This document shows positions 43,688-63,603 of a DNA stretch of 64,000 bases, piece after piece. Origin of the DNA: Gaiellaceae bacterium (GTDB lineage: Bacteria; Actinomycetota; Thermoleophilia; Gaiellales; Gaiellaceae). Below the pieces are notes generated by a model. The model ran no database searches and was not told the DNA's origin. It saw nothing but the letters and a program-made list of their open reading frames with translations. The stretch is from the NCBI GenBank assembly GCA_035764085.1, contig DASTZY010000082.1:11218-75217 (forward strand), in the 5' to 3' direction. Both the position numbers and the translations under genes were made by a program. The first letter of the stretch is position 1. Every line of letters begins with the position of its first letter.

Positions 43688-43699
43688 GATAGTCACCGA

Positions 43700-46035: not shown

Positions 46036-46048
46036 AGGGGTCGCGCTG

Positions 46049-46783
46049 ATGGACTTCGCGCTCTCGGAGGATCAGCTCGAGCTGAAGCAGGCCGCGCGCG
46101 CCTGGCTCGCCGACCGCTTCCCGCTCGACCGCGACTGGGACGAGCAGGACGACCGCTGGAGCGAGCTGGAGGAGCTCGGCTGGCTCGACGTCGCGGAGGC
46201 GGGGCTCGGCTTCGTCGAGGAGGCGCTGCTGCTCGAGGAGATGGGCTACGTCTGCTATCCGGGCTTCTATCTCGGACACGTCGCGTCGCTCGCGAGAGAG
46301 GACGACTCAGCCACCGTCGACCCGACGCGCCGCCCCTCGCGTGTCGAGGAGGAGACTCCGCGCTTCCGAGCCGCCTGCGCGGCCGAGGCGCTCGGCGTCG
46401 CGCAGCGGGCCCTCGATCTCGGCGCCGAGCACGCGAAGACGCGCACGCAGTTCGGCAAGCCGATCGGCACGTATCAGGCCGTCTCCCACCCGCTCGCACA
46501 GACGTACACCGACGTGGAGCTCGCCCGCTCGCTCGTCTACTGGGGCGCCTGGTGCGTGGCGGAGAACGACGAGCGCGCACCGGTGGCGGCCGCCGGCGCG
46601 AAGGCCTTCGCCACCGAGGCGGCCGTCGCCGCCTGCGAACGCTCGGTCCAGGTGCACGGCGGGATCGGCTTCACGTGGGAGCACCCGCTGCACCGCTTCT
46701 ACAAGCGCGCGATCTGGCTCGAGGGCTTCGGCCGACGCCCCGCCGAGCTTCGGCTCGAGGTCGCGGAAGCGCTGCTCGCGTAG
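46049..46783 (+). CDS. Short acyl-CoA dehydrogenase-like protein (beta-like; the middle domain appears to be missing)
   Basis: Tail of track ORF 45884..46783, starting at ATG 46049. The N-terminal helical domain joins directly to the C-terminal helical domain (FGKPIGTYQAVSH...VHGGIGFTWEHPLH). No EGT-type catalytic-base motif. Confidence 0.75.
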   Translation: MDFALSEDQLELKQAARAWLADRFPLDRDWDEQDDRWSELEELGWLDVAEAGLGFVEEALLLEEMGYVCYPGFYLGHVASLAREDDSATVDPTRRPSRVEEETPRFRAACAAEALGVAQRALDLGAEHAKTRTQFGKPIGTYQAVSHPLAQTYTDVELARSLVYWGAWCVAENDERAPVAAAGAKAFATEAAVAACERSVQVHGGIGFTWEHPLHRFYKRAIWLEGFGRRPAELRLEVAEALLA

Positions 46784-46787: not shown

Positions 46788-48398
46788 ATGAGCCGGATGG
46801 AAGGCCTGATGATGGACTTCCCCCTCACGCTGACGCACCTCCTGCGCCGGGCGGAGACGTTCTTCGGCGAGGGCGAGATCGTCACGCGCCTCCCCGACAG
46901 GTCCTTCCACCGCACCAACCACCGCGAGACGCTGCGCCGCGCGCGGCAGCTCGCCGTCGCGCTGCAGAAGGCCGGCCTCGAGCGCGGCGACCGCGTGGCC
47001 ACGCTGTGCTGGAACCACCATCAGCACCACGAGGCGTACTTCGGCGTCCCCTGCGGCGGCTTCGTCCTGCACACGCTCAACCTGCGCCTCCACCCCAACG
47101 ACCTCGCCTACATCGCCCAGCACGCCGGCGACCGCGCCGTGATCGTCGACCGCGCGCTCCTGCCGCTGCTGGAGCAGTTCCGCGACGAGACCTCGATCGA
47201 GCACGTCTGGGTCGTGGAGGACTCGTACGAGGAGCTGCTCGAGACGGCCGATCCGGACGACTGGGAGGACCCGGAGCTCGACGAGCGCGAGGCGGCGGCG
47301 ATGTGTTACACGAGCGGCACGACGGGACGGCCGCGCGGCGTCGTCTACTCGCATCGCTCCTCGGTCCTGCACGCGCTCGGCGTCGGCTCGAACAATCCGC
47401 TCGGGCTCGGCTTCGGAATCGACGACGCCCTGATGCCGGTCGTGCCCATGTTCCACGCGAACGCCTGGGGCTATCCGTACCTCGCCACGATGCAGGGCGC
47501 GAAGCTCGTCTATCCCGGCCCGCACCTCGACCCCGAGAGCCTGCTCGAGAACATGGAACAGGAGCGCGTGTCGTGGGCAGCGGGCGTGCCGACGATCTGG
47601 ATGGGCATCCTCGACCGCCTCGACGCGGAGCCCGGCCGCTGGGATCTCTCCGCGATGAAGGCGATGCTGGTGGGCGGCTCGGCCGTGCCACGGGCGATGA
47701 TCGCCGCCTTCGAGGAGCGGCACGGGCTGCGCATCTGCCAGGGCTGGGGGATGACGGAGACGTCGCCGGTCGCGTCGACGGCGGTCCTTCCCTACGACCT
47801 CGCCGAGGCCGACGCCGAGACGCGCTGGGACTTCCAGGCGATGGTCGGGTTCCCGCTCGCGTTCGTCGAGATCCGCGCTCGCGCCGGCGACGAGGACGTG
47901 CCCTGGGACGGCGAGGCGATGGGAGAGCTCGAGGTGCGCGGGCCGTGGGTCGCGGCGAGCTACTTCGACGCGCCCGAGACCGCGGACCGGTGGTCGGAGG
48001 ACGGCTGGTTCCGCACCGGCGACATCGTCTCGATCCACCCGCGTGGCTTCATCCAGATCAAGGACCGCTCGAAGGACGTGGTCAAGTCCGGCGGCGAGTG
48101 GATCTCGTCCGTCGAGCTCGAGAACGCGCTCATGGCGAACGACGCGGTCGCCGAGGCGGCGGTGATCGCCGTGCCCGACGAGAAGTGGGGCGAGCGGCCG
48201 CTCGCCGTGGTCGTCCTGCGCGAGGGCGCCGCCGCCACGGCGGACGAGCTGCGGGAGTTCCTCGCGCCGAGCTTCGCGAAGTGGTGGATCCCCGACCGGG
48301 TCGAGTTCGTGGACGAGATCCCGAAGACGAGCGTCGGCAAGTTCCGCAAGACGGCCCTGCGCGAGCAGTTCGCGAGCGAGCCGGCCCAGGCGAGTTGA
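46788..48398 (+). CDS. Fatty-acid--CoA ligase (AMP-binding family)
   Basis: Tail of track ORF 46341..48398. Start at ATG 46788 or 46797 (AGGAGA at 46782-46787). AMP motif [12 protein letters not shown], plus GWGMTET and VGKFRK. Confidence 0.9.
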
Positions 48399-49306
48399 GA
48401 GCGGCCGTCCTCCCGGCGGTCGACGCGCCGTTCGAGCTTCGCGACGTCCCCGACCCGGTGCCGCAGGACGGCGAGGCGCTCGTGCAGGTGCGCGCGGCCG
48501 GGATCAACTTCCTCGACGTCCTCATCCGGCGCGGCCGCTATCCGCAGATGCCGGACTTCCCGACGGTGCTCGGCGCCGAGCTCGCCGGCGAGCTCGAGGA
48601 CGGGACGCGCGTGATGGCGCTGCGCACGTCGGGTGCGTACGCCGAGCTCGCGCCCGTTCCGCGCGCGGCGCTGGTGCCGCTGCCGGAGGGCGCGACGTTC
48701 GCCGAGGGCGCGGGCTTCCTCCTCACGTTCCTCACGGCGCACATCCCGCTGACGCGGCAGGTGAGGCTCGCCGACGGCGCGACGGTGCTCGTGCACGCGG
48801 CGGCCGGCGGCGTCGGCACCGCGACGATCCAGGTCGCCCGCGCGCTCGGCGCGCGTGTCGTCGCGGCCGCGGGGTCGCCGGCGAAGCTCGTGCGCTGCCG
48901 CGAGCTCGGTGCCGAGGAGGCGTACGTCTACGACGAGCTGCCGGACGACCTGCGCGTCGACGTCGTCGTCGACCCGGTGGGCGGCGAGCTGTTCGAGGGA
49001 GCGATCGCGCGGCTCCGGCCGCTGGGCCAGCTCGTCGCGATCGGCTACGCGGGCGGGCTCTGGCCCGAGCTGCAGCCGGCCCAGATCGTGGGCCGGAGCG
49101 TCGGCGTGCAGGGGGTGTATCTCGGCAGGCTCCTTCGCCATGCGCCGGACGTCGTGGCCGCGGCGACACGCGAGCTGCTCGAGCTCTGGGGCTCCGGCAA
49201 GATCCGGCCGCTCGTCGGCGCCGAGTTCCCCCTCGACGAGGTCGAGCAGGCGCACGAGCTCGTCGAGTCGAGGCGCAGCGTCGGGAAGGTCGTGCTCCTC
49301 CCGTGA
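48395..49306 (+). CDS. Quinone oxidoreductase / zinc-type alcohol dehydrogenase-like (MDR family)
   Basis: Tail of track ORF 47006..49306. TTG 48395 lies in a TTGA overlap. Nucleotide-binding motif HAAAGGVG and C-terminal SRRSVGKVVL. Confidence 0.8.
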   Translation: MRAAVLPAVDAPFELRDVPDPVPQDGEALVQVRAAGINFLDVLIRRGRYPQMPDFPTVLGAELAGELEDGTRVMALRTSGAYAELAPVPRAALVPLPEGATFAEGAGFLLTFLTAHIPLTRQVRLADGATVLVHAAAGGVGTATIQVARALGARVVAAAGSPAKLVRCRELGAEEAYVYDELPDDLRVDVVVDPVGGELFEGAIARLRPLGQLVAIGYAGGLWPELQPAQIVGRSVGVQGVYLGRLLRHAPDVVAAATRELLELWGSGKIRPLVGAEFPLDEVEQAHELVESRRSVGKVVLLP

Positions 49307-49938
49307 GAGCGATCGTCACCGGCGGCCGCGGCGGGATCGGCACCGCGATCGTCGCGGCTCTGGACGACGCGGAGACCGTGGTGCTCGACCTGCCGGAGTT
49401 CGACGTCGGCGACCCGGATGCGTGGCGGTCGCTCGACGGCGAGTTCGATGCCGCCTTCCTCAACGCCGGGACGAGCACGGGCTTTGCGGACGCAGCCGAC
49501 CTGACGGACGAGGAGTGGCAGCGCATCCTGCGGGCGAACCTCGAGGGCGTCGTCTACGGGACCCGGGAGCTCGCGGCCCGACTAATGCCCGGCGGCGGGT
49601 CGATCGTCGCCACCGCCTCGCTCGCGGGCCTGACGGGGATGCCCGGCGATCCGGCCTACACGGCGACGAAGCACGCCGTGGTCGGCTGGGTCCGGTCGGC
49701 GGCGCCGGCCCTCGCGGAGCGCGGCATCCGGCTCAACGCGCTCTGTCCGGGCTTCGCCGACACGCCGCTCGTCGACGCGGAGCTGCGAGACCGGATCGAC
49801 GTCCCGCTGCTGGAGCCTGCGTTCGTGGCGGAGGCAGCGCTTCGAGTGATGGAGGACGCGGAGACGGGGCGCGCCTGGGTCGTGCAGCCGAACCGCGTGG
49901 AGCCGTTCCGCTTCCCCGGCGTCCCGGGACCGCGATGA
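49303..49938 (+). CDS. Short-chain dehydrogenase/reductase
   Basis: GTG 49303 lies in a GTGA overlap. Motifs TGGRGGIG, NAG, and YTATK (YxxxK). Confidence 0.85.
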   Translation: MRAIVTGGRGGIGTAIVAALDDAETVVLDLPEFDVGDPDAWRSLDGEFDAAFLNAGTSTGFADAADLTDEEWQRILRANLEGVVYGTRELAARLMPGGGSIVATASLAGLTGMPGDPAYTATKHAVVGWVRSAAPALAERGIRLNALCPGFADTPLVDAELRDRIDVPLLEPAFVAEAALRVMEDAETGRAWVVQPNRVEPFRFPGVPGPR

Positions 49939-50363
49939 GCCCGCGCTCGCGCAAGCCGTGGGGCGAGCACCCGCCGCCCGACCCGCACGTCTGGAACACG
50001 CTCGCGTACCGCGGCCTCGCGCAGGCGGACGGCGAGGCGGTGATCGAGTGGGACGCGCCGGTGGAGTACTGCTTCCACTCGCCGAGCGGGCCGATCGTCC
50101 ACGGCGGCATGGTCGCGGCGCTCCTCGACACGGCGATGGGCGGCGCCTGCTGGACGTTGATGGCCGAGGACGAGGACTTCCTCACCGCCGACCTGCGCAC
50201 CGAGTTCCACCGCTCCGCGCGGCCCGGGATCCTGCGGGCGGAGGGCCGCGTCGTGCAGCGCAACCGGCGCGTCGTCTTCTGCGCCGCGGAGCTCTTTCAG
50301 GAGGACCAGCTGATCGCAAGCGCCCGCTGCACGCAAATCGTGCGGCGGGATCAGAGCGCCTAG
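49935..50363 (+). CDS. PaaI-family hotdog-fold thioesterase
   Basis: Tail of track ORF 48855..50363. ATG 49935 lies in an ATGA overlap. The core GPIVHGGMVAALLDTAMG is typical of PaaI. Confidence 0.75.
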   Translation: MSPRSRKPWGEHPPPDPHVWNTLAYRGLAQADGEAVIEWDAPVEYCFHSPSGPIVHGGMVAALLDTAMGGACWTLMAEDEDFLTADLRTEFHRSARPGILRAEGRVVQRNRRVVFCAAELFQEDQLIASARCTQIVRRDQSA

Positions 50364-50450: not shown

Positions 50451-51410
50451 ATGAGAGCGGTCGTCCACGATCAGTACGGCCCTCCGGAGGTTCTGCGCAT
50501 CGACGAGGTCGAGAGGCCGGCACCGAAGGAGGGCGAAGTGCTGGTTCGGGTCCACGCCTCGACGGTGACGCGCGGGGATGCCATGGGCGTTCGCAGCGAC
50601 CACTACAGATTCGCCCGTGTCTTCACCGGCATCCGCCGACCCAGACGAACGGTCTTCGGTACCGAGTTCGCCGGACAGGTCGAGGCTGTCGGGGCCGGCG
50701 CGAGCGAGTTCGCGACCGGCGAAGACGTGTTCGGCGTTCAAGGCGGCGCGAGTGCCGAGTACGTCACCGTGCCCGAAAGCGGTGTGATCGCGGCGAAGCC
50801 GTCGGGACTGACGTACGAAGAGGCGGCAGCCATCCCCGATGGCTCGCTGCTCGCGTTGACGATGCTGCGGCCGCTGGAGCCGTTGCGTGGGAAGCGCGTT
50901 CTCGTCTACGGCGCTGCCGGCTCGATTGGCACAGCTGCGGTCCAGCTTCTCGTGCACCATTTCGAGGCCGATGTGACGGCCGTCTGCGACACCAAAGACG
51001 TCGAGCTCGTGCGCTCGCTCGGAGCACTATGCGTCCTCGATCGCTTCCATGAGGACTTCACCAAGAACGGCGAGACGTACGACGTGATCTTCGACGCCGT
51101 CGGCAAGCACTCATTCCGCCGCTGCCGGCGTTCCCTCAGTTCCGGTGGGGTCTACGTGACGACGGACCTGGGCTTCATGTACCACGTGCTGCTAGCGGCG
51201 CTCGTCACGCGACTGGTTGGACGGAGGCGAGCGAAGCTCGGCATCGGGCGCTATCGCAAGGAGGATCTGATCCTCGTCAGGCAGCTCGTCGACGCGGGGA
51301 AATACCGGCCCGTGATCGACCGGAGATACCTGGTCGACGAAATCGTCGAGGCCACGCGCTACGTCGAGAGCGGCCAGAAGGCAGGCACCGTCGTGCTCCG
51401 CGTCCCGTGA
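50451..51410 (+). CDS. NAD(P)-dependent MDR-family oxidoreductase (compositionally atypical gene)
   Basis: 319 aa. Motif VYGAAGSIG and C-terminal SGQKAGTVVL. Many codons that are rare elsewhere in the window (AGA, AGG, CTA, GGA, AAA, GAT). Confidence 0.8.
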   Translation: MRAVVHDQYGPPEVLRIDEVERPAPKEGEVLVRVHASTVTRGDAMGVRSDHYRFARVFTGIRRPRRTVFGTEFAGQVEAVGAGASEFATGEDVFGVQGGASAEYVTVPESGVIAAKPSGLTYEEAAAIPDGSLLALTMLRPLEPLRGKRVLVYGAAGSIGTAAVQLLVHHFEADVTAVCDTKDVELVRSLGALCVLDRFHEDFTKNGETYDVIFDAVGKHSFRRCRRSLSSGGVYVTTDLGFMYHVLLAALVTRLVGRRRAKLGIGRYRKEDLILVRQLVDAGKYRPVIDRRYLVDEIVEATRYVESGQKAGTVVLRVP

Positions 51411-51431: not shown

Positions 51432-51959
51432 CTAGACGGTGTAGGCCCAGCCCGGCTGCCAGGTGAAAGGCTCCCCTACGAGGTCCTCGAGCTTCCTGCC
51501 GTTCGCGGCAACCTCGAGACCGAGCCGCGTTGCGCTGTGGCCGATCACGAGCACCCGCTCACCGTCACGCTCGCGCCGCAACTCGTCGAGGAAGCCCGCC
51601 ACCCGCTCGACCGCCTGCCGCCAGCTCTCGCCGCCGGGATAGGGGACGTCGATGTGTGTCGCGCGATCGAGCAGCGGCTCGGCCGTGCCGTTCAGCTCGC
51701 CGTAGTCGCACTCGCGGAGCCGCGCGTCCCGGAAGAGCGGAAGCGGCGAGCCCGCGAAGGCGATCTCCGCCGTCTCGACCGCGCGGCGCAGATCCGACGT
51801 GAAGACGACCGAGAGCCCGTCGTGGCGGCGCCGCTCGCCGAGCTCCCGTGCCTGCTCGCGTCCCACCGCCGAGAGACGTCCGGGGAGCCACCCCGTCGCG
51901 ATCCCGGCCTCGTTGTCCTCGCTCGTGGAGTGCGTCTCGAAGACGACCTCGACGCTCAC
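51432..51959 (-). CDS. Histidine-phosphatase-superfamily protein (variant N-terminal motif)
   Basis: Tail of track ORF 51432..52439. GTG 51959 lies in a GTGA overlap. ETHSTSEDN stands in place of RHGxxxxN. Second His in VIGHSATR. Confidence 0.6.
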   Translation of the reverse strand: MSVEVVFETHSTSEDNEAGIATGWLPGRLSAVGREQARELGERRRHDGLSVVFTSDLRRAVETAEIAFAGSPLPLFRDARLRECDYGELNGTAEPLLDRATHIDVPYPGGESWRQAVERVAGFLDELRRERDGERVLVIGHSATRLGLEVAANGRKLEDLVGEPFTWQPGWAYTV

Positions 51960-52498
51960 TCCCGCCAGCCGAGCCGCCGTTCGATGCTCGCCTTCGCCTC
52001 GGGCCAGTCGTCGTCGATCACCGCGTACCACGCCGAGTCGCGACGCTCGCCCCCGCGGACGAGCTGATGCTTGCGGGCTACGCCCTCGAACGTCGCACCC
52101 ACCTTCTCGAGCGCGGGACGCGAGCGCTCGTTCAGGGCGTCGGTCTTGAACTCGACCCGGAGGTAGCCCTCGTCCTCGAACGCGTGCCGCAGCAGCAGGT
52201 ACTTCGCCTCGGTGTTCGCGTCCGTCCCCCACGCCCGCGGGTTGAGCCACGTGTTGCCGATCTCGACCACGCGGTCGTCGGGCCGGTCGTTGAGGAAGCT
52301 CGTGTGACCGACGAGCTCGTCGTCGAGGTAGTGCAGGAAGCCCATGTCGACGGACTCGAAGAAGCGCCGGAACTCGTCCCGCTCGTGGCCGTTGAAGCGC
52401 ATCCAGCGCCAGGTGCGCGGATCCTGCGCGACCGCCCACAGCGCCTCCTCGTGCCGCGCCTCGAGCGGCTCGAGCCGGACGCGCCGGCCCTCGAGCAT
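51956..52498 (-). CDS. GNAT-family N-acetyltransferase (RimJ/RimL-like)
   Basis: Tail of track ORF 51956..54589. ATG 52498 shares 1 nt with the upstream stop. VRLEPLEARHEEAL, EIGNTWL, and the ALEKVGATFEGVAR pattern. Confidence 0.75.
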   Translation of the reverse strand: MLEGRRVRLEPLEARHEEALWAVAQDPRTWRWMRFNGHERDEFRRFFESVDMGFLHYLDDELVGHTSFLNDRPDDRVVEIGNTWLNPRAWGTDANTEAKYLLLRHAFEDEGYLRVEFKTDALNERSRPALEKVGATFEGVARKHQLVRGGERRDSAWYAVIDDDWPEAKASIERRLGWRE

Positions 52499-53697
52499 CA
52501 CGTGAAGCGCCAGCCGTCCCCCTCCGCGAACGAGCGCAGGATGCGCCGCGCGACGACCGCCTTGTGCACTTCGTCGGGCCCGTCGTAGACCCTGCCGCTG
52601 CGCGCCATCCGCCACATGAGCGCGAGCGGCGTGTCGTCGGTGAGGCCGAGCCCGCCGTGCACTTGGATCGCGCGGTCGATCACCTCGCCGAGCACGCGCG
52701 CCGCGAAGAACTTGATCAGGGAGATCTCGACGCGCGCTTCGTCCCCCTCGTCGAGGCGATGCGCGGCGGCGACCGTCATGAGCCGGCACGCCTGGATGTC
52801 GGCGGCCGACTCCGCGATCCAGTTCTGGACGGTCTGCTTCTCGGCGAGCGGTCCGTCGAACGCCTCCCGCTCGAGCGCCCGCGCGCACATCAGCTCGAAC
52901 GCGCGCTCCATCTGTCCGAGCCAGCGCATGACGTGGTGGATGCGCCCCGGCCCGAGGCGCTTCTGCGCGAGCCGGAAGCCGTCGCCGGGCTCGCCGAGCG
53001 TGTTCGCCAGCGGCACGCGGACTCCGGTGAATCGCGTCTCGCAGTGCGTCCCCCAGCCGCGGCCCTCGTGCCCCATCACCGGGATGCGACGCACGAGGTC
53101 GTAGCCGGGCGTGTCGGTCGGGACGAGGATCATCGAGGCGCGCCGGTGCGGCTCGGCCTCGGGCTCGGTCACGACCATCACGATCCCGAACGCGGCGCCG
53201 TCGGCTCCCGAGGAGAACCACTTGTGCGCGTCGATCACCCACTCGTCGCCGTCCCGCTCGGCCCGGCCGCGCAACAGCGTCGGGTCGGAGCCGGACACCT
53301 CCGGCTCGGTCATGCCGAAGAAGGAGCGCACCTCGCCGGCGACGAGCGGGCGGAGGAACCGCTCCTTCTGCTCGTCGGTACCGAAGAGGTGGAGGATCTC
53401 CGCGTTGCCAGCGTCGGGTGCCTGGCAGCCGAAGATCAGCTGCGCGACGAAGCTGCGCCCGATCTCCTCGTTCAGGTGCGCGTACTCGAGGAAGCCGCTG
53501 CCCGAGCCGCCCGCCTCCGGCGGCAGGTGCGGCGCCCAGAGGCCGGCGTCCTTCGCCTTCTGCTGCAGGTCGCGCACGAGCGCGTCGGCCGTGTCGTCCT
53601 CCCGAGTCAGCGCCTGCTCGTTCGGATAGACGTGCTCCTCCATGAACGCGCGTGCGCGCTCGCGCCGGTCGGTCACAGCGGCGATGATCGCAGACAT
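52498..53697 (-). CDS. Acyl-CoA dehydrogenase, FadE2/ACAD10-11-like subfamily
   Basis: Tail of track ORF 52498..54003, starting at ATG 53697. FMEEHVYPNE, FGMTEPEVSGSD, and C-terminal YDGPDEVH. Confidence 0.85.
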   Translation of the reverse strand: MSAIIAAVTDRRERARAFMEEHVYPNEQALTREDDTADALVRDLQQKAKDAGLWAPHLPPEAGGSGSGFLEYAHLNEEIGRSFVAQLIFGCQAPDAGNAEILHLFGTDEQKERFLRPLVAGEVRSFFGMTEPEVSGSDPTLLRGRAERDGDEWVIDAHKWFSSGADGAAFGIVMVVTEPEAEPHRRASMILVPTDTPGYDLVRRIPVMGHEGRGWGTHCETRFTGVRVPLANTLGEPGDGFRLAQKRLGPGRIHHVMRWLGQMERAFELMCARALEREAFDGPLAEKQTVQNWIAESAADIQACRLMTVAAAHRLDEGDEARVEISLIKFFAARVLGEVIDRAIQVHGGLGLTDDTPLALMWRMARSGRVYDGPDEVHKAVVARRILRSFAEGDGWRFT

Positions 53698-54616
53698 GCG
53701 CGAGGCGCTCCAGGCGGTGCTCGGCCCGGTCTCGGAGCCGGTGCTGCTCGCGGGCGGTGCGTCGAAGGAGGCGTGGGCGGTGGACGCAGGCGGCGAGCCG
53801 CTCCTGGTGCGGCGCGCGGCCGTCGGCGTCATCCACCGGCACACGCTCTCGCTGCGGCACGAGTTCGAGGTGCTGCAGGCGGCGTACGAGGCGGGTGTCA
53901 GGGCGCCGCGGCCCGTCGCGTACATCGAGGACCTGGACGGGCGCGAGGCGTTCGTGATGGAGCGCCTGGCGGGCGAGACGATCGGGCGCCGCATCGTCCG
54001 CACTCCCGTTTCCGATCAGCTGCCGCTGCAGATGGCGGAGGAGCTGGCCAGGATCCACGCGCTCGCGCCGGAGCGGCTGCCGTTCCTCGAGGCGGCGACG
54101 ATCGACCGGATGGTGGAGGAGCTCGACGAGGTCGGCGAGCCGCATCCGGCGATCGAGCTCGGGCTCTGGTGGCTGCGCGAGAACCGGCCGCCGCCGCGCG
54201 AGGCGGTCGTCGTCCACGGCGACTTCCGCATCGGCAACCTCGTCGTGGACGGGAGCGGCCTGGTCGGCGTGCTGGACTGGGAGTTCGCGCACCTCGACGA
54301 CCCCGCGCGCGACCTCTCCTTCGCGCTCGTCCGCGCCTGGCGCTTCGGCCGCGACGACCTGCGGCTCGGCGGGATCGGTCAGGTCGAGCCGTATCTGGAG
54401 CGCTACAACGAGCTGACCGGCTTCGACGTGCGCCCGGAGGAGCTCGACTACTGGGAGCTCGCGGGCAACGTCGGCTGGGCGACCGGCTGCCTCACCCAGG
54501 CGCGGCGGCATCTGACCGGGCAGGACCGGAGCGTCGAGCTTGCGATCCTCGGCCGGCTCGGCGCCGAGGTCGAGTACGAGATCTGCCACCTGCTGGAGGC
54601 GAGGGGAGTCACATGA
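53696..54616 (+). CDS. APH-fold phosphotransferase family protein
   Basis: Track ORF 53642..54616. Start at ATG 53696 or 53684. Catalytic loop VHGDFRIGNLV and LDWEF. Confidence 0.8.
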   Translation: MREALQAVLGPVSEPVLLAGGASKEAWAVDAGGEPLLVRRAAVGVIHRHTLSLRHEFEVLQAAYEAGVRAPRPVAYIEDLDGREAFVMERLAGETIGRRIVRTPVSDQLPLQMAEELARIHALAPERLPFLEAATIDRMVEELDEVGEPHPAIELGLWWLRENRPPPREAVVVHGDFRIGNLVVDGSGLVGVLDWEFAHLDDPARDLSFALVRAWRFGRDDLRLGGIGQVEPYLERYNELTGFDVRPEELDYWELAGNVGWATGCLTQARRHLTGQDRSVELAILGRLGAEVEYEICHLLEARGVT

Positions 54617-54915
54617 GCGAGCGTCCGACCGCCGACGAGCTCGCCGAGGCGATCGAGGAGTTCCTCGCCGGCGAGATCCTGCCCACCCTCGACGACCACC
54701 GGCTCCGCTTCCGCACGCTCGTGGCGTTGAACGCGCTCGGGATCGTGCGCCGCGAGCTCGCAGGCCTGCCGCCGCAGGACGACGAGGAGCTGCGCGTGCT
54801 CGCGGCCCAGATCCGCGGCGGCGACGTCCCGCCCGGCACGCTCGCGCGCGTCAAGGCAGGCGTCGAGCAGCGGCTGCGGATCGCGAGTCCGAACTACCTC
54901 GACCGATACGCGTGA
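54613..54915 (+). CDS. Small (100 aa) helical protein, DUF6285-like partner of the phosphotransferase
   Basis: Tail of track ORF 52564..54915. ATG 54613 lies in an ATGA overlap. MSERPTADELAEAIEEFLAGEILP...LRFRTLVALNALGIVRREL. Confidence 0.65.
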   Translation: MSERPTADELAEAIEEFLAGEILPTLDDHRLRFRTLVALNALGIVRRELAGLPPQDDEELRVLAAQIRGGDVPPGTLARVKAGVEQRLRIASPNYLDRYA

Positions 54916-55865
54916 GCGCGTTCCTCGTCGAGCGGATCGAGGCGGACGCGGAGATCGAGCGGTCGATCTTCGGCACGGCCGACCCCCACGAGATCTGGCA
55001 CGAGGTCCTCGCGATCTGCCCGGAAGCCGTCGACTGCTTCGCCTTCGAGGTCAGCATCGGCGCACTCCTCGGCCTTCGCCTCGCCGGCGGCGAGCGCGTC
55101 GCGCTGAAGGTGCACCTCGACCGTGCACTCGACGGCTACCTGGAGGCGATGCAGGCCGTCCAGGAACATCTCCGGCGGCGCGGCTTTCCCTGCCCGAGAC
55201 CGCTCGGCGTGCGCGGTCGGGCGACGCTCGAGGAGTGGCGGGACGACGGCGAGTATCTCGATGGGCACGACCCCGCCGTACGCAGGGCACTCGCCGAGCT
55301 GCTCGCAGAGCTGGTCGAGCTGGCGCGTGACCTCGAGCCGAGCCCGTTGCTCGTGCCGTTCCTCCCGCGGCCGGGCGGTCCGCTGTGGCCGAAGCCGCAC
55401 AACGTCCTGATCGACTTCGAGGCCTCCGCACCGGCTGCCGGCTGGATCGACGAGATCGCCGCCGCCGCGCGACGCCGCCGCGACGCCGGGACCGGCGACC
55501 TCGTGATCGCCCACCACGATTGGAACGTGAACCACGTCCGTTTCGACGGGCTGCGGCCGGTCCTCGTCTACGACTGGGACAGCGTGAGCGCCGACTTCGA
55601 GCCGCACTTCGTCGGCGAGGCGGCGGCCGCATTCACCTACACGGAGCACCTTCCGGTCGAGCTCCTGCCGACCCTGGAGGAGTCGCAGGCCTTCATCGAC
55701 GATTACGAGCGGGCCCGCGGACGGCCGTTCACGGACGACGAGCGACGGACCGCCCGAGCCGCGACCGTCTACACGCGCTCGTACTCGACGCGCTGCATCC
55801 ACGCCCTCGGTGGCGACGTGCATGCGCTTCGCCTCCACGAGTACGAGCGCGAGTTGCTCGAATAA
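54912..55865 (+). CDS. Second APH-fold kinase-like protein
   Basis: Tail of track ORF 54540..55865. GTG 54912 lies in a GTGA overlap. Catalytic-loop-like HHDWNVNH and YDWD. Confidence 0.65.
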   Translation: MSAFLVERIEADAEIERSIFGTADPHEIWHEVLAICPEAVDCFAFEVSIGALLGLRLAGGERVALKVHLDRALDGYLEAMQAVQEHLRRRGFPCPRPLGVRGRATLEEWRDDGEYLDGHDPAVRRALAELLAELVELARDLEPSPLLVPFLPRPGGPLWPKPHNVLIDFEASAPAAGWIDEIAAAARRRRDAGTGDLVIAHHDWNVNHVRFDGLRPVLVYDWDSVSADFEPHFVGEAAAAFTYTEHLPVELLPTLEESQAFIDDYERARGRPFTDDERRTARAATVYTRSYSTRCIHALGGDVHALRLHEYERELLE

Positions 55866-55874
55866 GCTCTCGCC

Positions 55875-56810
55875 ATGCCCGATCTGAGCGGCAAGGTCGC
55901 GATCGTCACCGGGGCGGGACGCGGGATCGGCCGTTCGCACGCGCTCGCGCTCGCCCGGGCCGGGGCAAAGGTCGTCGTCAACGACCTCGGCGCCGGGATC
56001 GCCGGCGAGGGCTCCGACTCCGGGCCGGCCGAGGAGGTCGTCGAGGAGGTCCGCGCCGCCGGCGGGGAGGCGGCGGTGAACGGCGAGAACGTCGCCGACT
56101 TCACCGGGGCGGGACGGCTCGTCCAGCAGGCGATCGACGAGTTCGGCCGGCTGGACATCCTCGTCAACAACGCCGGGATCCTCCGCGACCGGATGCTCGT
56201 GAACATGACCGAGGACGAGTGGGACGCAGTCGTCGCCGTCCACCTCAAGGGCCACTTCGCGCCGACGCAGCACGCGGCGGCGCACTGGCGCGAGCGCTCG
56301 AAGGCCGGCGAGGACGTACGCGGCCGCGTCGTCAACACGTCGAGCCCCTCGGGCGTGTTCGGCAACGTCGGCCAGGCGAACTACGGCGCCGCGAAGGCGG
56401 GCATCGCCGGCTTCACGATCATCGCCGCGCAGGAGCTGCAGCGCTACGGCGTCACCGTCAACTGCCTCGCTCCGAACGCGCGCACGCGCATGACCGAGGA
56501 GACGTTCCAGATGGACGCGCCCCCGGAGGGCTTCGACCCGCTCGACCCCGGCAACGTCTCGGCCGTCGTCGTCGCGCTCTGCGCCGACGAGGCGCAGGCG
56601 ATCACCGGCCAGGTCATCCACGTCTGGGGCGGCGCCGTCAACGTGCTGCGCGGCTGGAGCGCCGGGGAGCTGCTCGACGCCCCGGACGGCTGGGAGCCGG
56701 ACGCGCTGCTGGGCGCGCTGCTCGCGCGCTTCCCGGACGGGGCCTCGCCGCCCGGCATGCTCGCCGGCATGCAGTCCGCCGGCGGGCGGTCGCTGCAGGC
56801 GGCGGACTGA
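55875..56810 (+). CDS. SDR oxidoreductase resembling the dehydrogenase domain of MFE-2 / hydroxyacyl-CoA dehydrogenases
   Basis: 311 aa. Motifs TGAGRGIG, NNAG, and YGAAK (YxxxK). Confidence 0.8.
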   Translation: MPDLSGKVAIVTGAGRGIGRSHALALARAGAKVVVNDLGAGIAGEGSDSGPAEEVVEEVRAAGGEAAVNGENVADFTGAGRLVQQAIDEFGRLDILVNNAGILRDRMLVNMTEDEWDAVVAVHLKGHFAPTQHAAAHWRERSKAGEDVRGRVVNTSSPSGVFGNVGQANYGAAKAGIAGFTIIAAQELQRYGVTVNCLAPNARTRMTEETFQMDAPPEGFDPLDPGNVSAVVVALCADEAQAITGQVIHVWGGAVNVLRGWSAGELLDAPDGWEPDALLGALLARFPDGASPPGMLAGMQSAGGRSLQAAD

Positions 56811-56812: not shown

Positions 56813-57540
56813 GTGGCCCTCCTCGAGCTCGACCGCGCTCGGCTTCGCTTCGGCGGGATCGTCGCGCTCGACGATGTCTCCCTCGCAGTCGAAGACCACT
56901 CGATCGTCGGTCTGATCGGCCCCAACGGCGCCGGGAAGACGACCGCGTTCAACGCGATCACGCGCCTCTACCGGCTCGACTCCGGCGACGTCGTCTTCGA
57001 CGGCCGCTCGCTCAAGCGCGTCCGGCCGAGCCGGGTGATCAGGCTGGGAATCGCCCGCACCTTCCAGAACCTCGAGCTGTTCCCGAGGATGACCGTGCTC
57101 GAGAACGTCCTCGTCGGCGCGCACGCCGCGACCCGCCTGCGGCTCGAGCGGGAGCAACGGCGGGCCGCGCTCGAGACGCTCGAAGACGTCGGCATCGCCG
57201 AGCATGCGAACCGCCCCGCCTCGGGGCTCCCGTTCGGGACGCTGAAGCGCGTGGAGCTCGCGCGCGCGGTCGCGAGCCAGCCGCGGGTCCTCCTCCTCGA
57301 CGAGCCGGCGGGCGGCCTGAACCACGAGGAGGTCGACGAGCTCGGCGGCCTGATCCGCCGGCTGCGCGACGAGCGCGAGCTGACCGTCCTCCTGGTCGAG
57401 CACCACATGCGGCTCGTGATGGAGGTCTGCGAGCACGTGCACGTCCTCGACTTCGGGCGCACCATCGCCAGCGGCGCGCCCGCCGAGGTGCAGCGCGACT
57501 CCGCCGTGATCGAGGCGTACCTCGGGGGAGAGCTCGCGGC

Positions 57541-57544
<4 letters not shown>
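56813..57544 (+). CDS. ABC transporter ATP-binding protein (LivG-like)
   Basis: Tail of track ORF 55385..57544, starting at GTG 56813. Walker A GPNGAGKTT, signature LPFGTLKRVELARA, Walker B LLLDEPAGG. Confidence 0.85.
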
Positions 57545-58247
<703 letters not shown>

Positions 58248-58248
<1 letters not shown>

Positions 58249-59258
58249 TGGCCGCGCTCGAGTCCTCTCCCCGCCCCAGCTTCCGCAGCCGCGGCGCCGC
58301 GCTCGGCGGCGTGCCGGCCATCAGCCTGCTCCTCGTCGCCGCGGCGGCGGCGCTGCTCGTCGGCTCGCTGCGCAACCAGACCTTCGCCCAGCTGACGGTC
58401 CAGGGGCTCGCCCTCGGGTCCGTCTACGGCAGCCTCGCGCTCGCGCTCGTCCTCGTCTATCGCGCGACGCGCGTGATCAACTTCGCCCAGGGCGAGCTGG
58501 CCATGTTCACCACGTACATCGCATGGCAGCTCATCCAGTGGGGCCTCTCGTACTGGGAGGCGTTCTTCGCCACGCTGGGGATCGCGTTCGTGCTCGGCCT
58601 CGTGCTCGAGGTCGCGCTCATCCGGCCGGTGCTGCACCGGTCTGCGATAGCCGCCGTGATCGTGACGGTCGGGCTCTTCATCCTGATCGACGGCGTCGTG
58701 ACCTGGATCTGGGGAGGCGACTTCAAGTTCATCCCCTCGCCGTTCGGGACGACCATCTACCACGTGGGCGGCGTCTCGATCGCCCGGCTCTATCTCGGGA
58801 TGATCGTCGTCGTCCTCGCCTCGGTGCTGCTCGTCTGGGCGCTCTTCCGGTTCACGAAGCTGGGTCTCGGGATGCGCGCAGCCGCCGTGCGGCCTGCCGA
58901 GGCGGCCCTCGTAGGCGTTCGCGTCGACCGGATGCTGGCGATCGGCTGGGGGCTCGCCGCCGTGCTCGGCGCCGTCGCGGGCCTGATGGCCGAGCCGTCG
59001 CAGTTCACGCTCGAGCCGACGCTCATGCAGCCCATCCTCGTCTACGCCTTCGCCGCGGCCGTGCTCGGCGGGCTCGAGAGCCCGGCGGGAGCACTCGTCG
59101 GCGGGCTCGTCATCGGCGTCTCGCTCAGCCTCATCGTCCAGTACGTGCCGGCGATCACCTCGGAGCTGCAGCTGCCGTTTGCCTTCGCCGTGCTCATCGT
59201 CGTGCTGCTGATCAAGCCGTCCGGCCTCTTCGGTCGCCGCGAGGTGCGGCGGGTATGA
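58248..59258 (+). CDS. ABC transporter permease (LivH-like)
   Basis: Tail of track ORF 57906..59258. ATG 58248 shares 1 nt with the upstream stop. GSVYGSLALALVLVYRATRVINFAQGE. Confidence 0.85.
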
Positions 59259-60187
59259 AACGGCTGCCGGCCTTCGCGTCGCTCGCCGCCGTGGCGGGAG
59301 TGCTCGCGGTGCTGCCGTTCCTCCTCAGCGGCTACCACGTCTCCCTCGTCGCGAAGGTCGGGGTCTTCTTCATCGGGGTGCTCGGCCTGAACATCCTCAC
59401 CGGCTACACGGGACAGATCTCGATCGGCCACGGCGCGTTCATGGCGATCGGCGGCTACACGACGGCAGTGCTGTCGCGCGACCACGACACCAACCTCGTC
59501 GTGACGATGCTCGCGGCCTTCGCCCTCTGCTTCGTCGTCGGCGTGCTCGTCGGCATCCCGGCGCTTCGTTTCTCCGGGGTCTACCTCGCGCTCGTGACCT
59601 TCGCGCTGGCCGTCTCCGTGCCCCAGCTGCCGCTCAAGTGGTCGAGGTTTCTCGGCGGAAGGGACGGCGTCCAGACTTCGCGGACGGTGAGCCACGTCTG
59701 GCTCTACGGCGCTGCCTGGGCGGCGTCGGCGATCCTGTTCGTCCTCGCGTGGCTGATCTTGCGAGGCCGGGTCGGGCGCGCCTTCCGAGCGGTCCGCGAC
59801 AGCGAGATCGCAGCCGTCGCCTCCGGGATCGAGCTGCCCGTCTACAAGACCCTCGCGTTCGGGATCTCGGCCGCCTACGCCGGCGTCGCGGGCTCGCTCT
59901 TCGTCCTCGCGACCAACGGCTTCGCGGCGCCCGACGAGTTCGGCGTCGTGCTCTCGCTCCAGCTCCTCGTCGGCGCGGCGGTGGCCGGGCTCGGGTCGCT
60001 CTGGGGGGTCCTCGCCGGCGCCGCGTTCGTCGGGTTGCTCCCCGCGGTCTCGAGCGGTGTCCCCGTGATCGGCTCCGACCACGGCCGGGACGTCGTGTTC
60101 GGAGCGGCGGTCGTCCTCGTCATGCTCCTGCTCCCCGGCGGGTTCGCCGGACTGATCGCGCGTCTGCGTCGGGTCGCCCGTGCTTGA
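59255..60187 (+). CDS. ABC transporter permease (LivM-like)
   Basis: Tail of track ORF 58175..60187. ATG 59255 lies in an ATGA overlap. GYTGQISIGHGAFMAIGGY. Confidence 0.85.
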   Translation: MKRLPAFASLAAVAGVLAVLPFLLSGYHVSLVAKVGVFFIGVLGLNILTGYTGQISIGHGAFMAIGGYTTAVLSRDHDTNLVVTMLAAFALCFVVGVLVGIPALRFSGVYLALVTFALAVSVPQLPLKWSRFLGGRDGVQTSRTVSHVWLYGAAWAASAILFVLAWLILRGRVGRAFRAVRDSEIAAVASGIELPVYKTLAFGISAAYAGVAGSLFVLATNGFAAPDEFGVVLSLQLLVGAAVAGLGSLWGVLAGAAFVGLLPAVSSGVPVIGSDHGRDVVFGAAVVLVMLLLPGGFAGLIARLRRVARA

Positions 60188-60262
60188 ACCGCGAGTCAAT
60201 CTCAATCAAACTGCTCCCGAAATCGTCTCATCGGACACACCCGCAATCGCAGGAGGGGGCGC

Positions 60263-61528
60263 ATGAGCGTCAACCGTAGGAAGCTCGGAGCGCTGCTCTG
60301 CGCTCTTCTCGTCACAGCCGCGGTGGCAAGCGCAGCGGCTGCGTCGCACACGAGCACACCGGGCGTGACGAAGAAGCAGATCACGATCGGCGGCACGTTC
60401 CCGCTGACCGGTCCGGCGTCGCTGTACAAGACGATCCCGGCGGCGGAGGCCGCCTACTACGCCTACGTGAACGCACACGGCGGCGTGAACCACCGCAAGA
60501 TCAAGGACATCGTCCTCGACGACCAGTACGACCCGTCGCAGACCGTGCCGCAGACCACGAAGCTGGTCGAGCAGGACCACGTCTTCGCCGTGGTCGGCAG
60601 CCTCGGCACCGCGCCGATCCTCTCGACGTGGAGCTACCTGAACAAGAACAAGGTGCCGCAGGTGCTCGTCGCGACCGGCGACGCCTTCTGGGGCAATTGC
60701 GTGCACCACAAGTGCCAGGGCTCGACGAAACCGTGGACGATGGGCTGGCAGCCCACGTACCCGGGCGAGGCGAAGATCTACGCGAAGTACATCCTCGCCA
60801 ACAAGGCGAGCGCGAAGATCGGCGTCATCTACCAGAACGACGCGTACGGGAAGAACTACCTCGCCGGCCTGAAGACCGGGCTCGGCTCGCACGCGAACCA
60901 GATCGTCGACGCCGAGTCGTACAACGTCGGCGACTCCGCCCAGGTGATCGCGGCCCACATCGTGGCCCTGCGGGCGCACGGCGCCGACACGCTCGCGATC
61001 TTCGCGACGCCGACGCCGACGATCCAGTCGCTCGTGGCCAGGACGCTGATCGGCTGGGATCCGCTCACGTTCGTCAACAACGTGTCGGCGAACCGGCTCT
61101 TCGAGCTCGCCGCGGCACAGAACGGCGCCAGCCTGGACGGGATCATCTCCACGGCGTACACCGCCAGCTCGACCACGCAGGCGAACCTGCCGGGGATGAA
61201 GCTCGCGACGTCGATCATCCACCAGTACGCGCCCAGCCTCGACCAGAGCCTCGCCCAGGGCGACGGGAACATCGTCTACGGGCTCGGCGTCGCCTGGACG
61301 TTCGTGGACGCGCTCAAGCACGCGGGCAAGAACCTGACGCGGGCGAGTCTGATGCACGCGCTGCGGAGCCTGAACGAGACGAAGAACCCGTTCATCTATC
61401 CGGGCATGACGGTCCAGACGTCCAAGAAGCGCACCTTCCCCATGGAGCAGCTCAAGCTCCTGCGGTGGAGCGGCGGCAAGACCGGCGACTGGCACGCCTT
61501 CGGCAAGATCTACTCGGGCGTGCACTAG
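60263..61528 (+). CDS. ABC transporter substrate-binding protein (LIV/HAAT family), secreted
   Basis: 421 aa. SD GGAGGGGG upstream. Signal peptide LLCALLVTAAVASAAAA. Last gene of the second ABC operon. Confidence 0.85.
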   Translation: MSVNRRKLGALLCALLVTAAVASAAAASHTSTPGVTKKQITIGGTFPLTGPASLYKTIPAAEAAYYAYVNAHGGVNHRKIKDIVLDDQYDPSQTVPQTTKLVEQDHVFAVVGSLGTAPILSTWSYLNKNKVPQVLVATGDAFWGNCVHHKCQGSTKPWTMGWQPTYPGEAKIYAKYILANKASAKIGVIYQNDAYGKNYLAGLKTGLGSHANQIVDAESYNVGDSAQVIAAHIVALRAHGADTLAIFATPTPTIQSLVARTLIGWDPLTFVNNVSANRLFELAAAQNGASLDGIISTAYTASSTTQANLPGMKLATSIIHQYAPSLDQSLAQGDGNIVYGLGVAWTFVDALKHAGKNLTRASLMHALRSLNETKNPFIYPGMTVQTSKKRTFPMEQLKLLRWSGGKTGDWHAFGKIYSGVH

Positions 61529-61685: not shown

Positions 61686-61727
61686 TCGGGACCGGTCTTC
61701 GCAAGTAACAGACTGTTACAAGCCGAG
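61686..61727. repeat. Direct-repeat copy 2 containing an identical GTAACAGACTGTTAC (61705-61719); overlaps the stop codon of the downstream gene
   Basis: It lies exactly 103 bp from copy 1. The TAA stop of the minus-strand gene (61716-61718) is inside the palindrome. Confidence 0.75.
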
Positions 61728-63584
61728 TTCGGCCGGCGCGGTCACGGGTGCCCGGCACGCAAAGTTCGCGCAGACGTAGACCGCGGGCGCGCCCTCGACG
61801 AGGGCCTTGCCCTCCAGCAGCGGCACGTCCTCGGCCGGGCCGAAGGCGACGACCGCGTTCGGGTCGAAGCCGCCCAGCGCCGCGCGGGCGACCTCCGAGT
61901 CCGGGCCGCCGACGATCGCCAGCTCGCGCGGCGGCGAGAGATGGAGATCCACCGCGCACAGCGCCCAGCCGAAGAAGGTGGGCAGCCGCGGCAGCTGGTC
62001 GCGGACGAGCCGCAGCGCTCCCACCGCCTGCCGCTCGAGCTCGTCGTCGCCCCAGATCCGCGCGAGGCGCAGGAGGACGAAGGCGAGCATCGAGTTGCCC
62101 GCAGGCGTCGGGTTGTCGTCGAGGGACTTCTGCCGCGCCACGAGTTGCTCGCCGTCCACCGGCGCGAGGAAGAAGCCGCCGCGTTCCGGGTCGCCGAACA
62201 GCTCGACGGCGGCGAGCGCAAGGCGGCGTGCCTCGTGCAGCCAGCGGAGCTCGCCGCTTGCGACGTGCAGCTCGTAGAGGCCGTGCGCCACGTTCGCGTA
62301 GTCCTCGAGATAGGCGGGGAACTTCGCGCGGCCGTCGCGCAGCGTTCGCCAGAGCGGTTCCGCGCACAGCAGCTCCCCCAGCTCCCGGGCGGCCGCGAGG
62401 AGGTCTCGGCGCTCCAGCCGACGCGCTCCCTCCGAGAGCGCGGCCAGCGCCAGGCCGTTCCAGGACGCGATGACCTTGTCGTCGAGAGCGGGCTGCGGCC
62501 GGCCTTCACGGATCTCGAGCAGCCGCCCACGGATCTCGTCGTCCAGCTCGCCTCTCAGGACGAAGCGCCCGTGCTCGAACGGCTGCAGCAGCTCCGGCGG
62601 CGCTCCCTCCTCGGCCGTCCAGGTGTACGTGAGACCCTCGACGCCGTCGGTGTCCGCGTCCTGCGAGGACGCGAAACCCCCGCCGGGTGGCCGCAGCTCG
62701 CGCACCATGTAGTCGAGCGTCTGCTCCGCCACGCGGCGGTACCGCTCCTCCCCGGTGAGCAGCCAGGCGTGGAGGTACGGCGGGACGAGGACCGCGTTGT
62801 CGTAGAGCATCTTCTCGAAGTGCGGCACGAGCCACTGCGCGTCGACCGAGTAGCGGTGGAACCCCCCGCCGACCAGGTCGTACATCCCGCCCGCCGCCAT
62901 CCCGTCGAGCGTCAGCAGGACCGGATCCAGCGCCTCACGGCGCAGCAGGAACTCGAGCGCCGACGCGGGCGGGAACTTCGGCGCATGTCCGAAGCCACCC
63001 CAGCGCGGATCGACCTGCGCGAGGAGGCCGCGCTCGGCCTCCGCGAGCAGCTCTTCGGTGAGCGGCTCGCGCGACGGCTCCGTCTCGGCCGAGCGCCGCA
63101 CCGCATCGACGAGCGCCGTGGCCTGCGCGGCGACGTCCTCCGGGCGCTCGCGATAGGCGTCCGCGACCGCGCGGAGCACCTGGCGGAACGAGGGCAGCCC
63201 GTGCCGCGGCTCGGGCGGGAAGTAGGTGCCTCCGAAGAACGGCTCGCCGTCCGGCGTGAGGAAAACCGTGAGCGGCCAGCCGCCCTGTCCGGTCAGCGCC
63301 ACCACGGCGTCCATGTACACGGCGTCGACGTCCGGCCGCTCCTCGCGGTCGACCTTGACGTTGACGAAGAGCTCGTTCATGACGGTCGCGGTCGCCTCGT
63401 CGTCGAACGACTCGTGCTCCATCACGTGGCACCAGTGGCAGGCGGCGTACCCGATCGAGACGAGCAGCGGCTTGCCCTCGGCGCGGGCGCGGCCGAACGC
63501 CTCGTCGCCCCACGCATGCCAGTCCACCGGGTTCCCGGCGTGCTGGAGGAGGTACGGGCTCGTCTCCTGCGCCAGCCGGTTCAT
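61716..63584 (-). CDS. Thioredoxin-domain protein of the DUF255/YyaL family
   Basis: Track ORF 61716..63650. ATG 63584 preferred (alternative 63605). [28 protein letters not shown], followed by a long alpha-helical-toroid-like region. Confidence 0.85.
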
Positions 63585-63603
63585 CGCGTTAGCGTAGGCG
63601 CCC

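Follow-up and report, generated by a model that had tools for sequence, protein, structure and literature searches.

The route in which a kinase and an acyl-CoA dehydrogenase (ACAD)-family protein act together on 4-hydroxy acids has so far been characterised only in Pseudomonas, Burkholderia and mammals. In the Pseudomonas lva operon it comprises the LvaA/LvaB kinase and LvaC (Rand et al. 2017, as summarised in PMC6692424 and PMC9399607); LvaB is pulled down together with LvaA, and the two are necessary for 4-phosphovaleryl-CoA to form (PMC6692424). Mammalian ACAD10 and ACAD11 and their bacterial orthologues convert 4-hydroxyacyl-CoA via 4-phosphoacyl-CoA to 2-enoyl-CoA with no external electron acceptor, and a pair consisting of a solo kinase and an ACAD from B. 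pseudomallei is likewise active (PMC11342911). Here we describe a related locus in a Gaiellaceae bacterium (Actinomycetota; Thermoleophilia; Gaiellales), located in a 64,000-nt stretch, hereafter called the window, of contig DASTZY010000082.1 (assembly GCA_035764085.1, positions 11,218 to 75,217 of the forward strand). It encodes homologues of LvaA (the first kinase), LvaB (the small subunit, a 100-aa DUF6285 protein) and LvaC (the window ACAD), together with a short-chain dehydrogenase/reductase (SDR) of the MFE-2 type and an ATP-binding cassette (ABC) importer of the LIV type. Judging from its sequence, the locus is probably a split Lva-type entry module that would channel 4-hydroxyacyl-CoAs into beta-oxidation. 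As such it would extend the kinase-plus-ACAD route to the Gaiellales, which are abundant but almost uncultured soil Actinomycetota. The system is of a known type, and what is new is its lineage-specific context, i.e. the divergent arrangement, the MFE-2-type SDR, the ABC importer and a GNAT acetyltransferase. Current understanding is not overturned; the value of the locus lies in annotation and in the choice of enzymes for the conversion of levulinate and hydroxy acids.

As the lva reference we used the lvaR/lvaABCDEFG operon on P. aeruginosa plasmid p12939-PER (L292), obtained from a tblastn search of plasmids that used a related kinase as the query. It contains a PrpR-like regulator gene divergent from genes encoding a phosphotransferase, LvaB, an ACAD, an SDR, an acyl-CoA synthetase, a DUF485 protein and a cation-acetate symporter, which is the published lvaR/lvaABCDEFG order. 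The second gene is named '4-hydroxypentanoyl-CoA kinase subunit LvaB' by NCBI, and the KT2440 lvaR primer given in PMC10164729 matches the 3' end of the regulator gene exactly. The same primer also matched P. guariconensis, in an 8-kb stretch that ended before lvaA; the KT2440 PlvaA primer had no match in genomes and two chance matches in metagenomes. The window resembles this operon in having an APH-fold kinase of the same clade (36.5% identity to LvaA), a coupled DUF6285/LvaB gene immediately downstream of it, an ACAD partner (40.6% identity to LvaC) in which the catalytic Asp and the Arg/His/Arg helix are kept, and a CoA ligase nearby. In contrast, the window ACAD lies on the opposite strand, head-to-head with the kinase gene, and belongs to an actinobacterial rather than the LvaC subclade; the small subunit lacks an insertion of about 18 residues present in LvaB; and an MFE-2-type SDR and a LIV-type importer are found instead of the LvaD-type SDR, LvaR and the LvaF/LvaG symporter.

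With mammalian ACAD10 and ACAD11 (PMC12440821, PMC11342911; PDB entries 8v3u, 8v3v and 2wbi) the locus shares the ACAD domain with its named active-site residues, the kinase fold and catalytic motifs, and the proposed chemistry. Unlike in these proteins, kinase and ACAD are separate genes on opposite strands instead of being fused, there is no HAD domain, and the kinase belongs to the LvaB-dependent class. The solo pairs of Burkholderia and other Proteobacteria (L003, L089-L208) also consist of an adjacent APH kinase and an ACAD10/11-like ACAD, but their kinases are about 347 aa long and share 50% identity among themselves and 28% with the window kinase, and a DUF6285 model found no adjacent DUF6285 gene in the 80 loci searched (L089-L168). 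Outside the Gaiellaceae, the closest kinase (58% identity) and small subunit (53%) are those of an uncharacterised cluster on plasmid pTT27 of Thermus thermophilus HB8 (L006), which has, like the window, an AMP-binding ligase, a PaaI thioesterase, SDRs and an ACAD of the same family. However, all of its genes lie on one strand, its ACAD is in the LvaC subclade and it has no ABC importer.

Core proteins of the locus

Genes were called from open reading frames, a frame plot of third-codon-position G+C (GC3) and translations. Domains were assigned with Pfam and NCBIfam, and solved relatives were identified by PDB sequence search; gene typing covered the window from 42.5 to 63.7 kb (Table 1).

The best PDB match of the window ACAD was mouse ACAD11 (8v3u; E = 1e-94, 320 bits), followed by human ACAD11 (2wbi; 306 bits) and a mycobacterial relative (4hr3; 288 bits), with all the conventional ACADs in PDB at 180 bits or less. 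Residues R626, H634 and R637 on one helix, together with the catalytic D753, are common only to ACAD10/11 and LvaC (PMC12440821). In the alignment to ACAD11, in which window RLGPGRIHHVMR stands opposite RLGPGRIHHCMR, RLGPGRIHHvMR falls on R626/H634/R637, and YDGPDEVH, part of the C-terminal sequence RVYDGPDEVH, falls on the DGPDEVH holding D753; thus, all four named residues are kept in the window ACAD. The catalytic Glu of the YEG motif of conventional FadE/MCAD-like enzymes is not present, YDG being found in its place. A neighbour-joining tree placed the protein within the LvaC/ACAD10-11 group, apart from generic ACADs, where it falls together with Rhodococcus and Streptomyces plasmid genes into an actinobacterial sister subclade (bootstrap 100). 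The window ACAD belongs to neither the ACAD11 nor the LvaC subclade, and its link to the former is weak (bootstrap 39). The window ACAD is predicted to eliminate phosphate from a 4-phosphoacyl-CoA.

The first kinase keeps the catalytic motifs VVHGDFRIGN (HGD....N) and LDWEF (DWE) and aligns with LvaA of p12939-PER over 307 aa (E = 1e-56). In the kinase tree it is sister to the Thermus kinase within a clade that also contains LvaA and the kinases of Azoarcus, Paroceanicella and Acinetobacter (bootstrap 87), and every kinase of this LvaA clade in the tree has a DUF6285 gene downstream. The other clade comprises the ACAD11 kinase domain, 9o56 and the solo kinases, and two kinase classes, LvaB-dependent and solo, are told apart in this way. 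Solved relatives of the first kinase scored modestly, namely 9o56 (E = 3e-12, the best), the ACAD11 kinase domain (38.8 bits) and 3dxp.

The match to 9o56 bears on another reading, in which the kinase acts on a non-CoA lipid alcohol, e.g. a 1-O-alkylglycerol, and its pairing with the ACAD reflects a different or dual function. The HYDxK motif of 9o56 fits the Caldalkalibacillus ACAD10-kinase homologue, which is reported in a preprint to phosphorylate chimyl alcohol, and the same activity is reported there for several other prokaryotic homologues. We consider this reading very unlikely because the window kinase belongs to the LvaA/LvaB-partnered clade, outside that of ACAD10 and 9o56, and has HGDFR instead of HYDxK. 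In addition, LvaAB is reported to be active on 4-hydroxyvaleryl-CoA, the phosphate-binding residues are kept in the paired ACAD, and no ether-lipid genes were seen among the typed genes of the cluster.

Also very improbable would be an ordinary beta-oxidation neighbourhood, with a conventional FadE-type ACAD and APH genes that are unrelated passengers (antibiotic or small-molecule kinases). Many generic acyl-CoA genes do lie in the wider region (two more ACADs, a ligase, a thioesterase and SDRs), and a second kinase gene next to the core is truly a passenger (see below). However, the window ACAD has the catalytic Asp within the ACAD10/11/LvaC signature, as opposed to the Glu of YEG in a generic ACAD that fills the same slot as the second kinase in some relatives. 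Moreover, the first kinase fell far below all NCBIfam resistance-kinase cut-offs, the best score being 41.9 bits for APH(3') against a cut-off of 205 and the Mph models giving at most 27 bits against cut-offs of at least 500, and it is tied to this ACAD clade and to DUF6285 across phyla.

The small subunit was connected with LvaB through Pfam family DUF6285. LvaB of p12939-PER matches the whole DUF6285 model (E = 4.8e-24), and the same operon on an Azotobacter plasmid has a second gene annotated as DUF6285. Compared by hhalign, the Gaiellaceae and the LvaB-type profiles align end to end over 94 columns (97.8% probability, E = 1e-12). The DUF6285 family comprises 473 clusters at 50% identity, and its tie to LvaB hints at the function of several hundred protein clusters. 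In two proteins (P0152 and P0235, 417 and 452 aa) an LvaA-class kinase is naturally fused in frame to DUF6285, which argues for a physical complex of the two subunits. Another protein, P0161, is a read-through of DUF6285 into a histidine phosphatase, and its C-terminal part looks frameshifted. The small subunit was modelled as a four- or five-helix bundle (pLDDT 86, pTM 0.50), and no PDB match by sequence or fold was found for DUF6285. We also considered whether DUF6285 might be a split-off piece of the longer solo kinases; since it lacks profile similarity to any part of these kinases (0.2% probability in the profile comparison), it is not a detached piece of them. A small hypothetical gene beside the Streptomyces plasmid kinase, considered as a DUF6285 candidate, showed no resemblance to the family.

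The original prediction had described the ACAD as ACAD10/11- or LvaC-like, the first kinase as LvaA-like, the 100-aa protein as LvaB-like and the whole as a split actinobacterial version of Lva/ACAD10-11 chemistry. The homology and clade membership of the core proteins, with both ACAD and kinase clustering with LvaC/LvaA or ACAD10/11 in the trees, support this description.

Proposed reactions and the neighbouring SDR, ligase and importer

We propose that a carboxylic acid bearing a 4-hydroxyl group would be imported, possibly by the LIV-type ABC system, and then made into a CoA thioester, a step for which the ligase at 46788 is a plausible enzyme. The two-subunit kinase, consisting of the LvaA-class APH protein and the DUF6285 protein, would then phosphorylate the 4-hydroxyl with ATP. 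In the ACAD, the catalytic Asp would abstract the alpha-proton while the Arg/His/Arg helix holds the phosphate, and elimination of the phosphate in a redox-neutral cycle would yield 2-enoyl-CoA and some 3-hydroxyacyl-CoA. The latter may be oxidised by the MFE-2-type SDR, with beta-oxidation following.

Among solved proteins this SDR is closest to the Candida MFE-2 (3R)-hydroxyacyl-CoA dehydrogenase (2et6, E = 2e-96) and then to HSD17B4 (E = 1e-53), and it is probably a (3R)-hydroxyacyl-CoA dehydrogenase itself. Identity to LvaD is 41-64% for the cassette SDRs of Azoarcus, Paroceanicella and Thermus, compared with 34% for the MFE-2-type SDR and 33% for the other local SDR, neither of which exceeds the generic SDR level. 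Being of the MFE-2 type and only 34% identical to LvaD, the SDR is tentatively placed after the ACAD step. The MFE-2 likeness noticed in the original prediction is borne out by 2et6 and by the NCBIfam match, whereas the role of an LvaD-type 4-oxoacyl-CoA reductase is not, by sequence.

These findings also bear on whether the locus is a true levulinate operon, in which a local dehydrogenase would reduce levulinyl-CoA to 4-hydroxyvaleryl-CoA prior to phosphorylation and further processing. Homologues of LvaA, LvaB and LvaC are present, two SDRs and a medium-chain dehydrogenase/reductase (MDR) lie nearby as possible 4-oxo reductases, and the CoA ligase is 33% identical to LvaE (E = 2e-75). Nevertheless, we regard a levulinate operon as unlikely, since the local SDRs fall short of the identity to LvaD seen in true cassettes, the SDR next to the core genes is of the MFE-2 type, LvaR and LvaFG are not there and the transporter is of another kind. 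With no LvaD orthologue, no LvaR and no LvaFG, levulinate, a 4-keto acid, is not indicated as the substrate.

The ligase is a candidate for the activating enzyme in the role of LvaE. Tight spacing and synteny within one family suggest that the ligase and the importer may be linked to the module; the importer's binding protein has weak solved relatives only (4n03, E = 2e-13). Just two of the neighbours are found again in Thermus, namely the ligase and the PaaI thioesterase, the latter being 40% identical to that of the pTT27 cluster. The MDR dehydrogenase and the short SDR that follow the ligase gene may have a role in the module.

Several points weigh against reading the locus as a split Lva-type entry module. 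No clear LvaD orthologue was found at the locus, and a sigma-54 regulator of the LvaR type and LvaF/LvaG (DUF485 protein and acetate symporter) were not among the genes typed. The synteny of ligase and importer was seen within one bacterial family only and could reflect shared ancestry. ACAD10-type kinase domains, prokaryotic ones included, are reported to phosphorylate 1-O-alkylglycerols (2026 preprint), and the position of the CoA-contacting R86 of ACAD11 is occupied by His in the window kinase, with an Arg one residue before. Finally, the kinase affiliates with those of Thermus and LvaA, and the ACAD with actinobacterial ACADs partnered by solo-class kinases. Since the two trees disagree, the pair has been recombined and was not inherited as a unit.

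Conservation and variable genes

Kinase, DUF6285 gene and ACAD were found adjacent in five other lineages (Thermus, Azoarcus, Paroceanicella, Acinetobacter and Azotobacter). On Thermus pTT27 the order is SDR-ACAD-kinase-DUF6285-histidine phosphatase, with the AMP-binding ligase and PaaI thioesterase upstream; in Azoarcus KH32C it is ACAD-SDR-kinase-DUF6285-histidine phosphatase; and the cassette of Acinetobacter marinus adjoins an LvaR-like regulator. The latter was obtained from an LvaR-based locus search that otherwise yielded mostly generic sigma-54 activators, and a search with the DUF6285 protein of Azoarcus reached the Rhodocyclales only. The arrangement of the window is kept in 80 Gaiellaceae genomes (L009-L088). 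Together with the adjacency of the core genes in the five other lineages, this suggests that the arrangement is more than chance. The Gaiellaceae block is listed as ligase, MDR, SDR, PaaI, a variable stretch, GNAT and ACAD on one strand, and kinase, DUF6285, a slot, SDR, LivGFHM and the binding protein on the other. The ligase is upstream in most of the loci long enough to show it. Nearly every Gaiellaceae locus has the GNAT gene downstream of the ACAD gene, and the cassettes of other phyla lack it; it is a lineage-specific companion of the ACAD. In the actinobacterium Nonomuraea gerenzanensis (L296 6062-8163), the gene for an ACAD 52% identical to that of the window has an LvaA-class kinase gene behind it on that strand, and the sole DUF6285 gene found (12620-12937) lies 4.5 kb off on the opposite strand.

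The slot between the DUF6285 gene and the SDR gene, which otherwise adjoin each other, is an insertion hot spot. In about half of the relatives the slot is unoccupied, the DUF6285 gene being followed directly by the SDR gene after a gap of 10-40 nt, and in 11 of 76 relatives it holds the second kinase. Alternative contents are an ordinary ACAD on the opposite strand (YEGTSQ), a pair of extracytoplasmic function (ECF) sigma and anti-sigma factors, and a cytochrome c. A second variable stretch was noted in Gaiellaceae loci between the PaaI gene and the GNAT gene.

The second kinase of the window had no sequence match in Pfam, NCBIfam or PDB. Its AlphaFold model (pLDDT 89.7, pTM 0.90), when searched with Foldseek, matched only the APH/choline-kinase fold in PDB, i.e. 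homoserine kinase (2ppq), amicoumacin kinase, and macrolide and aminoglycoside kinases. It has the motif HHDWNVNH; its family keeps the catalytic Asp and the Asp of the DWD motif, and Asp203 and Asp221 of the kinase core are invariant in it, as is a His at the position of the usual catalytic-loop Asn. Homologues about 60% identical to it sit in unrelated neighbourhoods. The original prediction had seen two kinase-fold proteins as a distinguishing feature of the system; the APH fold of the second protein was recovered, but given its distribution this protein is a passenger in the variable slot and not a defining part of the system. It might instead be a working part, sharing the small subunit or supplying the same ACAD with a second class of hydroxyacyl-CoA. 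Its gene is coupled to the DUF6285 gene, lies 9 nt before the SDR gene and occupies the same slot in the 11 relatives, and the two kinase-core Asp residues are invariant. However, since most relatives lack the gene, the slot also accommodates such different contents, the homologues occur in unrelated neighbourhoods and the canonical Asn is replaced by His, we find a working role very improbable.

Three genes of the window are regarded as accessory inserts, namely those of the second kinase, the histidine phosphatase and the second MDR enzyme. The second MDR gene was found in none of the 80 Gaiellaceae loci and the histidine phosphatase in about 9. The window phosphatase, considered as a conserved member of the module, was rejected on this count and because blastp did not match it to the cassette phosphatases of Thermus or Azoarcus. 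Other His_Phos_1 phosphatases recur beside kinase/ACAD pairs of both kinase classes in several phyla (L006 8345-8998, L007 8372-9049, L213 2888-3568, and 13 of the 120 loci L089-L208), and a histidine phosphatase is reported in the lva cluster of P. citronellolis (PMC6692424). The recurrent His_Phos_1 recalls the HAD phosphatase domain fused to ACAD10; the window's phosphatase is a different, variable gene.

A broader and rather speculative picture, to which we would give only a small chance, is that the LvaB/DUF6285-dependent kinases form a large separate class of two-subunit acyl-CoA kinases recombining freely with ACAD subclades. The Gaiellaceae pair, combined as it is with an MFE-2-type dehydrogenase, a GNAT and an ABC importer, might in that case serve for some soil substrate different from levulinate, e.g. 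medium-chain 4-hydroxy acids or opened gamma-lactones; the variable slot could tune the substrate range, and the histidine phosphatase recurrent in other phyla could parallel the HAD domain of ACAD10.

The solo class also bears on a published label. The supplement of PMC11342911 labels the peptide FNCSAPDTGNMET 'Pseudomonas LvaC'. A degenerate FNCSAPDTGNMET pattern retrieved 120 loci (L089-L208), all of them solo-class kinase/ACAD pairs or orphan ACADs, and none of the 80 of these searched with the DUF6285 model (L089-L168) had a DUF6285 gene. The peptide typifies ACAD10/11-like ACADs that have a solo kinase as partner or occur by themselves, and it is absent from LvaC of the p12939-PER operon (L292 9343-10515), which has ALNIHAPDEGNIH. 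The 'Pseudomonas LvaC' protein used in that study may be a paralogue and not the LvaC of the operon.

Gene map and junctions

The window has a G+C content of about 72%, and its proteins are 72-94% identical to those of metagenome-assembled genomes of Gaiellaceae/Thermoleophilia. The genes, motifs and overlaps listed in the original prediction were all found where it had placed them, including the ATPase-first LIV-type ABC genes directly after the SDR gene and the CoA ligase gene upstream; the GNAT and histidine phosphatase genes coupled downstream of the ACAD had been missed.

Table 1. Positions and assignments of the genes in and around the core of the Gaiellaceae locus
Feature	Position in window	Strand	Basis or remark
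Acyl-CoA ligase	46788..48398	+	Pfam AMP-binding and AMP-binding_C
MDR-family (quinone-oxidoreductase-like) dehydrogenase	48410..49306 (start approximate)	+	GC3 plot; Pfam ADH_N, ADH_zinc_N, ADH_zinc_N_2
Short SDR, 211 aa	49303..49938	+	Pfam adh_short
PaaI/4HBT hotdog acyl-CoA thioesterase	49935..50363	+	Pfam 4HBT
Second MDR-family dehydrogenase	50451..51410	+	Pfam; lower GC3 in this stretch
Histidine phosphatase (His_Phos_1)	51432..51959	-	Pfam, E = 1e-28; last of the ACAD-GNAT-phosphatase string
GNAT acetyltransferase	51956..52498	-	Pfam Acetyltransf_3
LvaC/ACAD10-11-type ACAD, 399 aa	52498..53697	-	Three Pfam ACAD domains
LvaA-class APH-fold kinase (first kinase)	53684..54616 (alternative start 53696)	+	Pfam APH, E = 1e-30
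LvaB-family 100-aa protein (small subunit)	54613..54915	+	Pfam DUF6285, 43.6 bits against a cut-off of 28.1
Divergent APH-fold second kinase	54912..55865	+	AlphaFold model and Foldseek
MFE-2-type SDR	55875..56810	+	NCBIfam NF005861, 404 bits, above cut-off
LIV-type ABC importer, whole	56813..61528	+	Pfam ABC_tran and BCA_ABC_TP_C, BPD_transp_2, Peripla_BP_6
LivG	56813..57544	+	
LivF	57541..58248	+	
LivH	58248..59258	+	
LivM	59255..60187	+	
Binding protein (Peripla_BP_6)	60263..61528	+	

The plus-strand genes are tightly joined. The stop codon of the first kinase overlaps the start of the small-subunit gene in ATGA, the stop of the latter overlaps the start of the second kinase in GTGA, and the gaps from the second kinase to the SDR and from the SDR stop to LivG are 9 and 2 nt, respectively. 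The minus-strand genes overlap as well, the start of the GNAT gene with the stop of the ACAD gene, and the start of the histidine phosphatase gene with the stop of the GNAT gene (GTGA). The ACAD and the first kinase, originally described as back-to-back, are arranged head-to-head, with their ATG codons sharing the palindrome CATG at 53695-53698. The kinase ATG at 53684 (ATGATCGCAGAC) is conserved in relatives and, if used, would give a 14-nt overlap with the ACAD coding region; the spacing in relatives ranges from -13 to +15 nt. Since there is no intergenic region between the two divergent genes, their promoters must lie within coding sequence, or the transcripts are leaderless. The promoter and terminator scan of the locus gave nothing exceeding the level of shuffled-sequence controls, including a single terminator-like site inside the ABC operon.

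Further upstream, the plus strand (42557-46783) encodes an EamA transporter, an FMN-dependent alpha-hydroxy-acid dehydrogenase and two consecutive ACADs. The second of these has a length of only about 299 aa, so that together they may make up a heteromeric pair. In many relatives, too, the ligase gene comes after an ACAD gene. At the other end, a 644-aa protein with a CHWCHVM motif is encoded on the minus strand (61716-63650), convergent with the ABC operon, and is syntenic in many Gaiellaceae loci.

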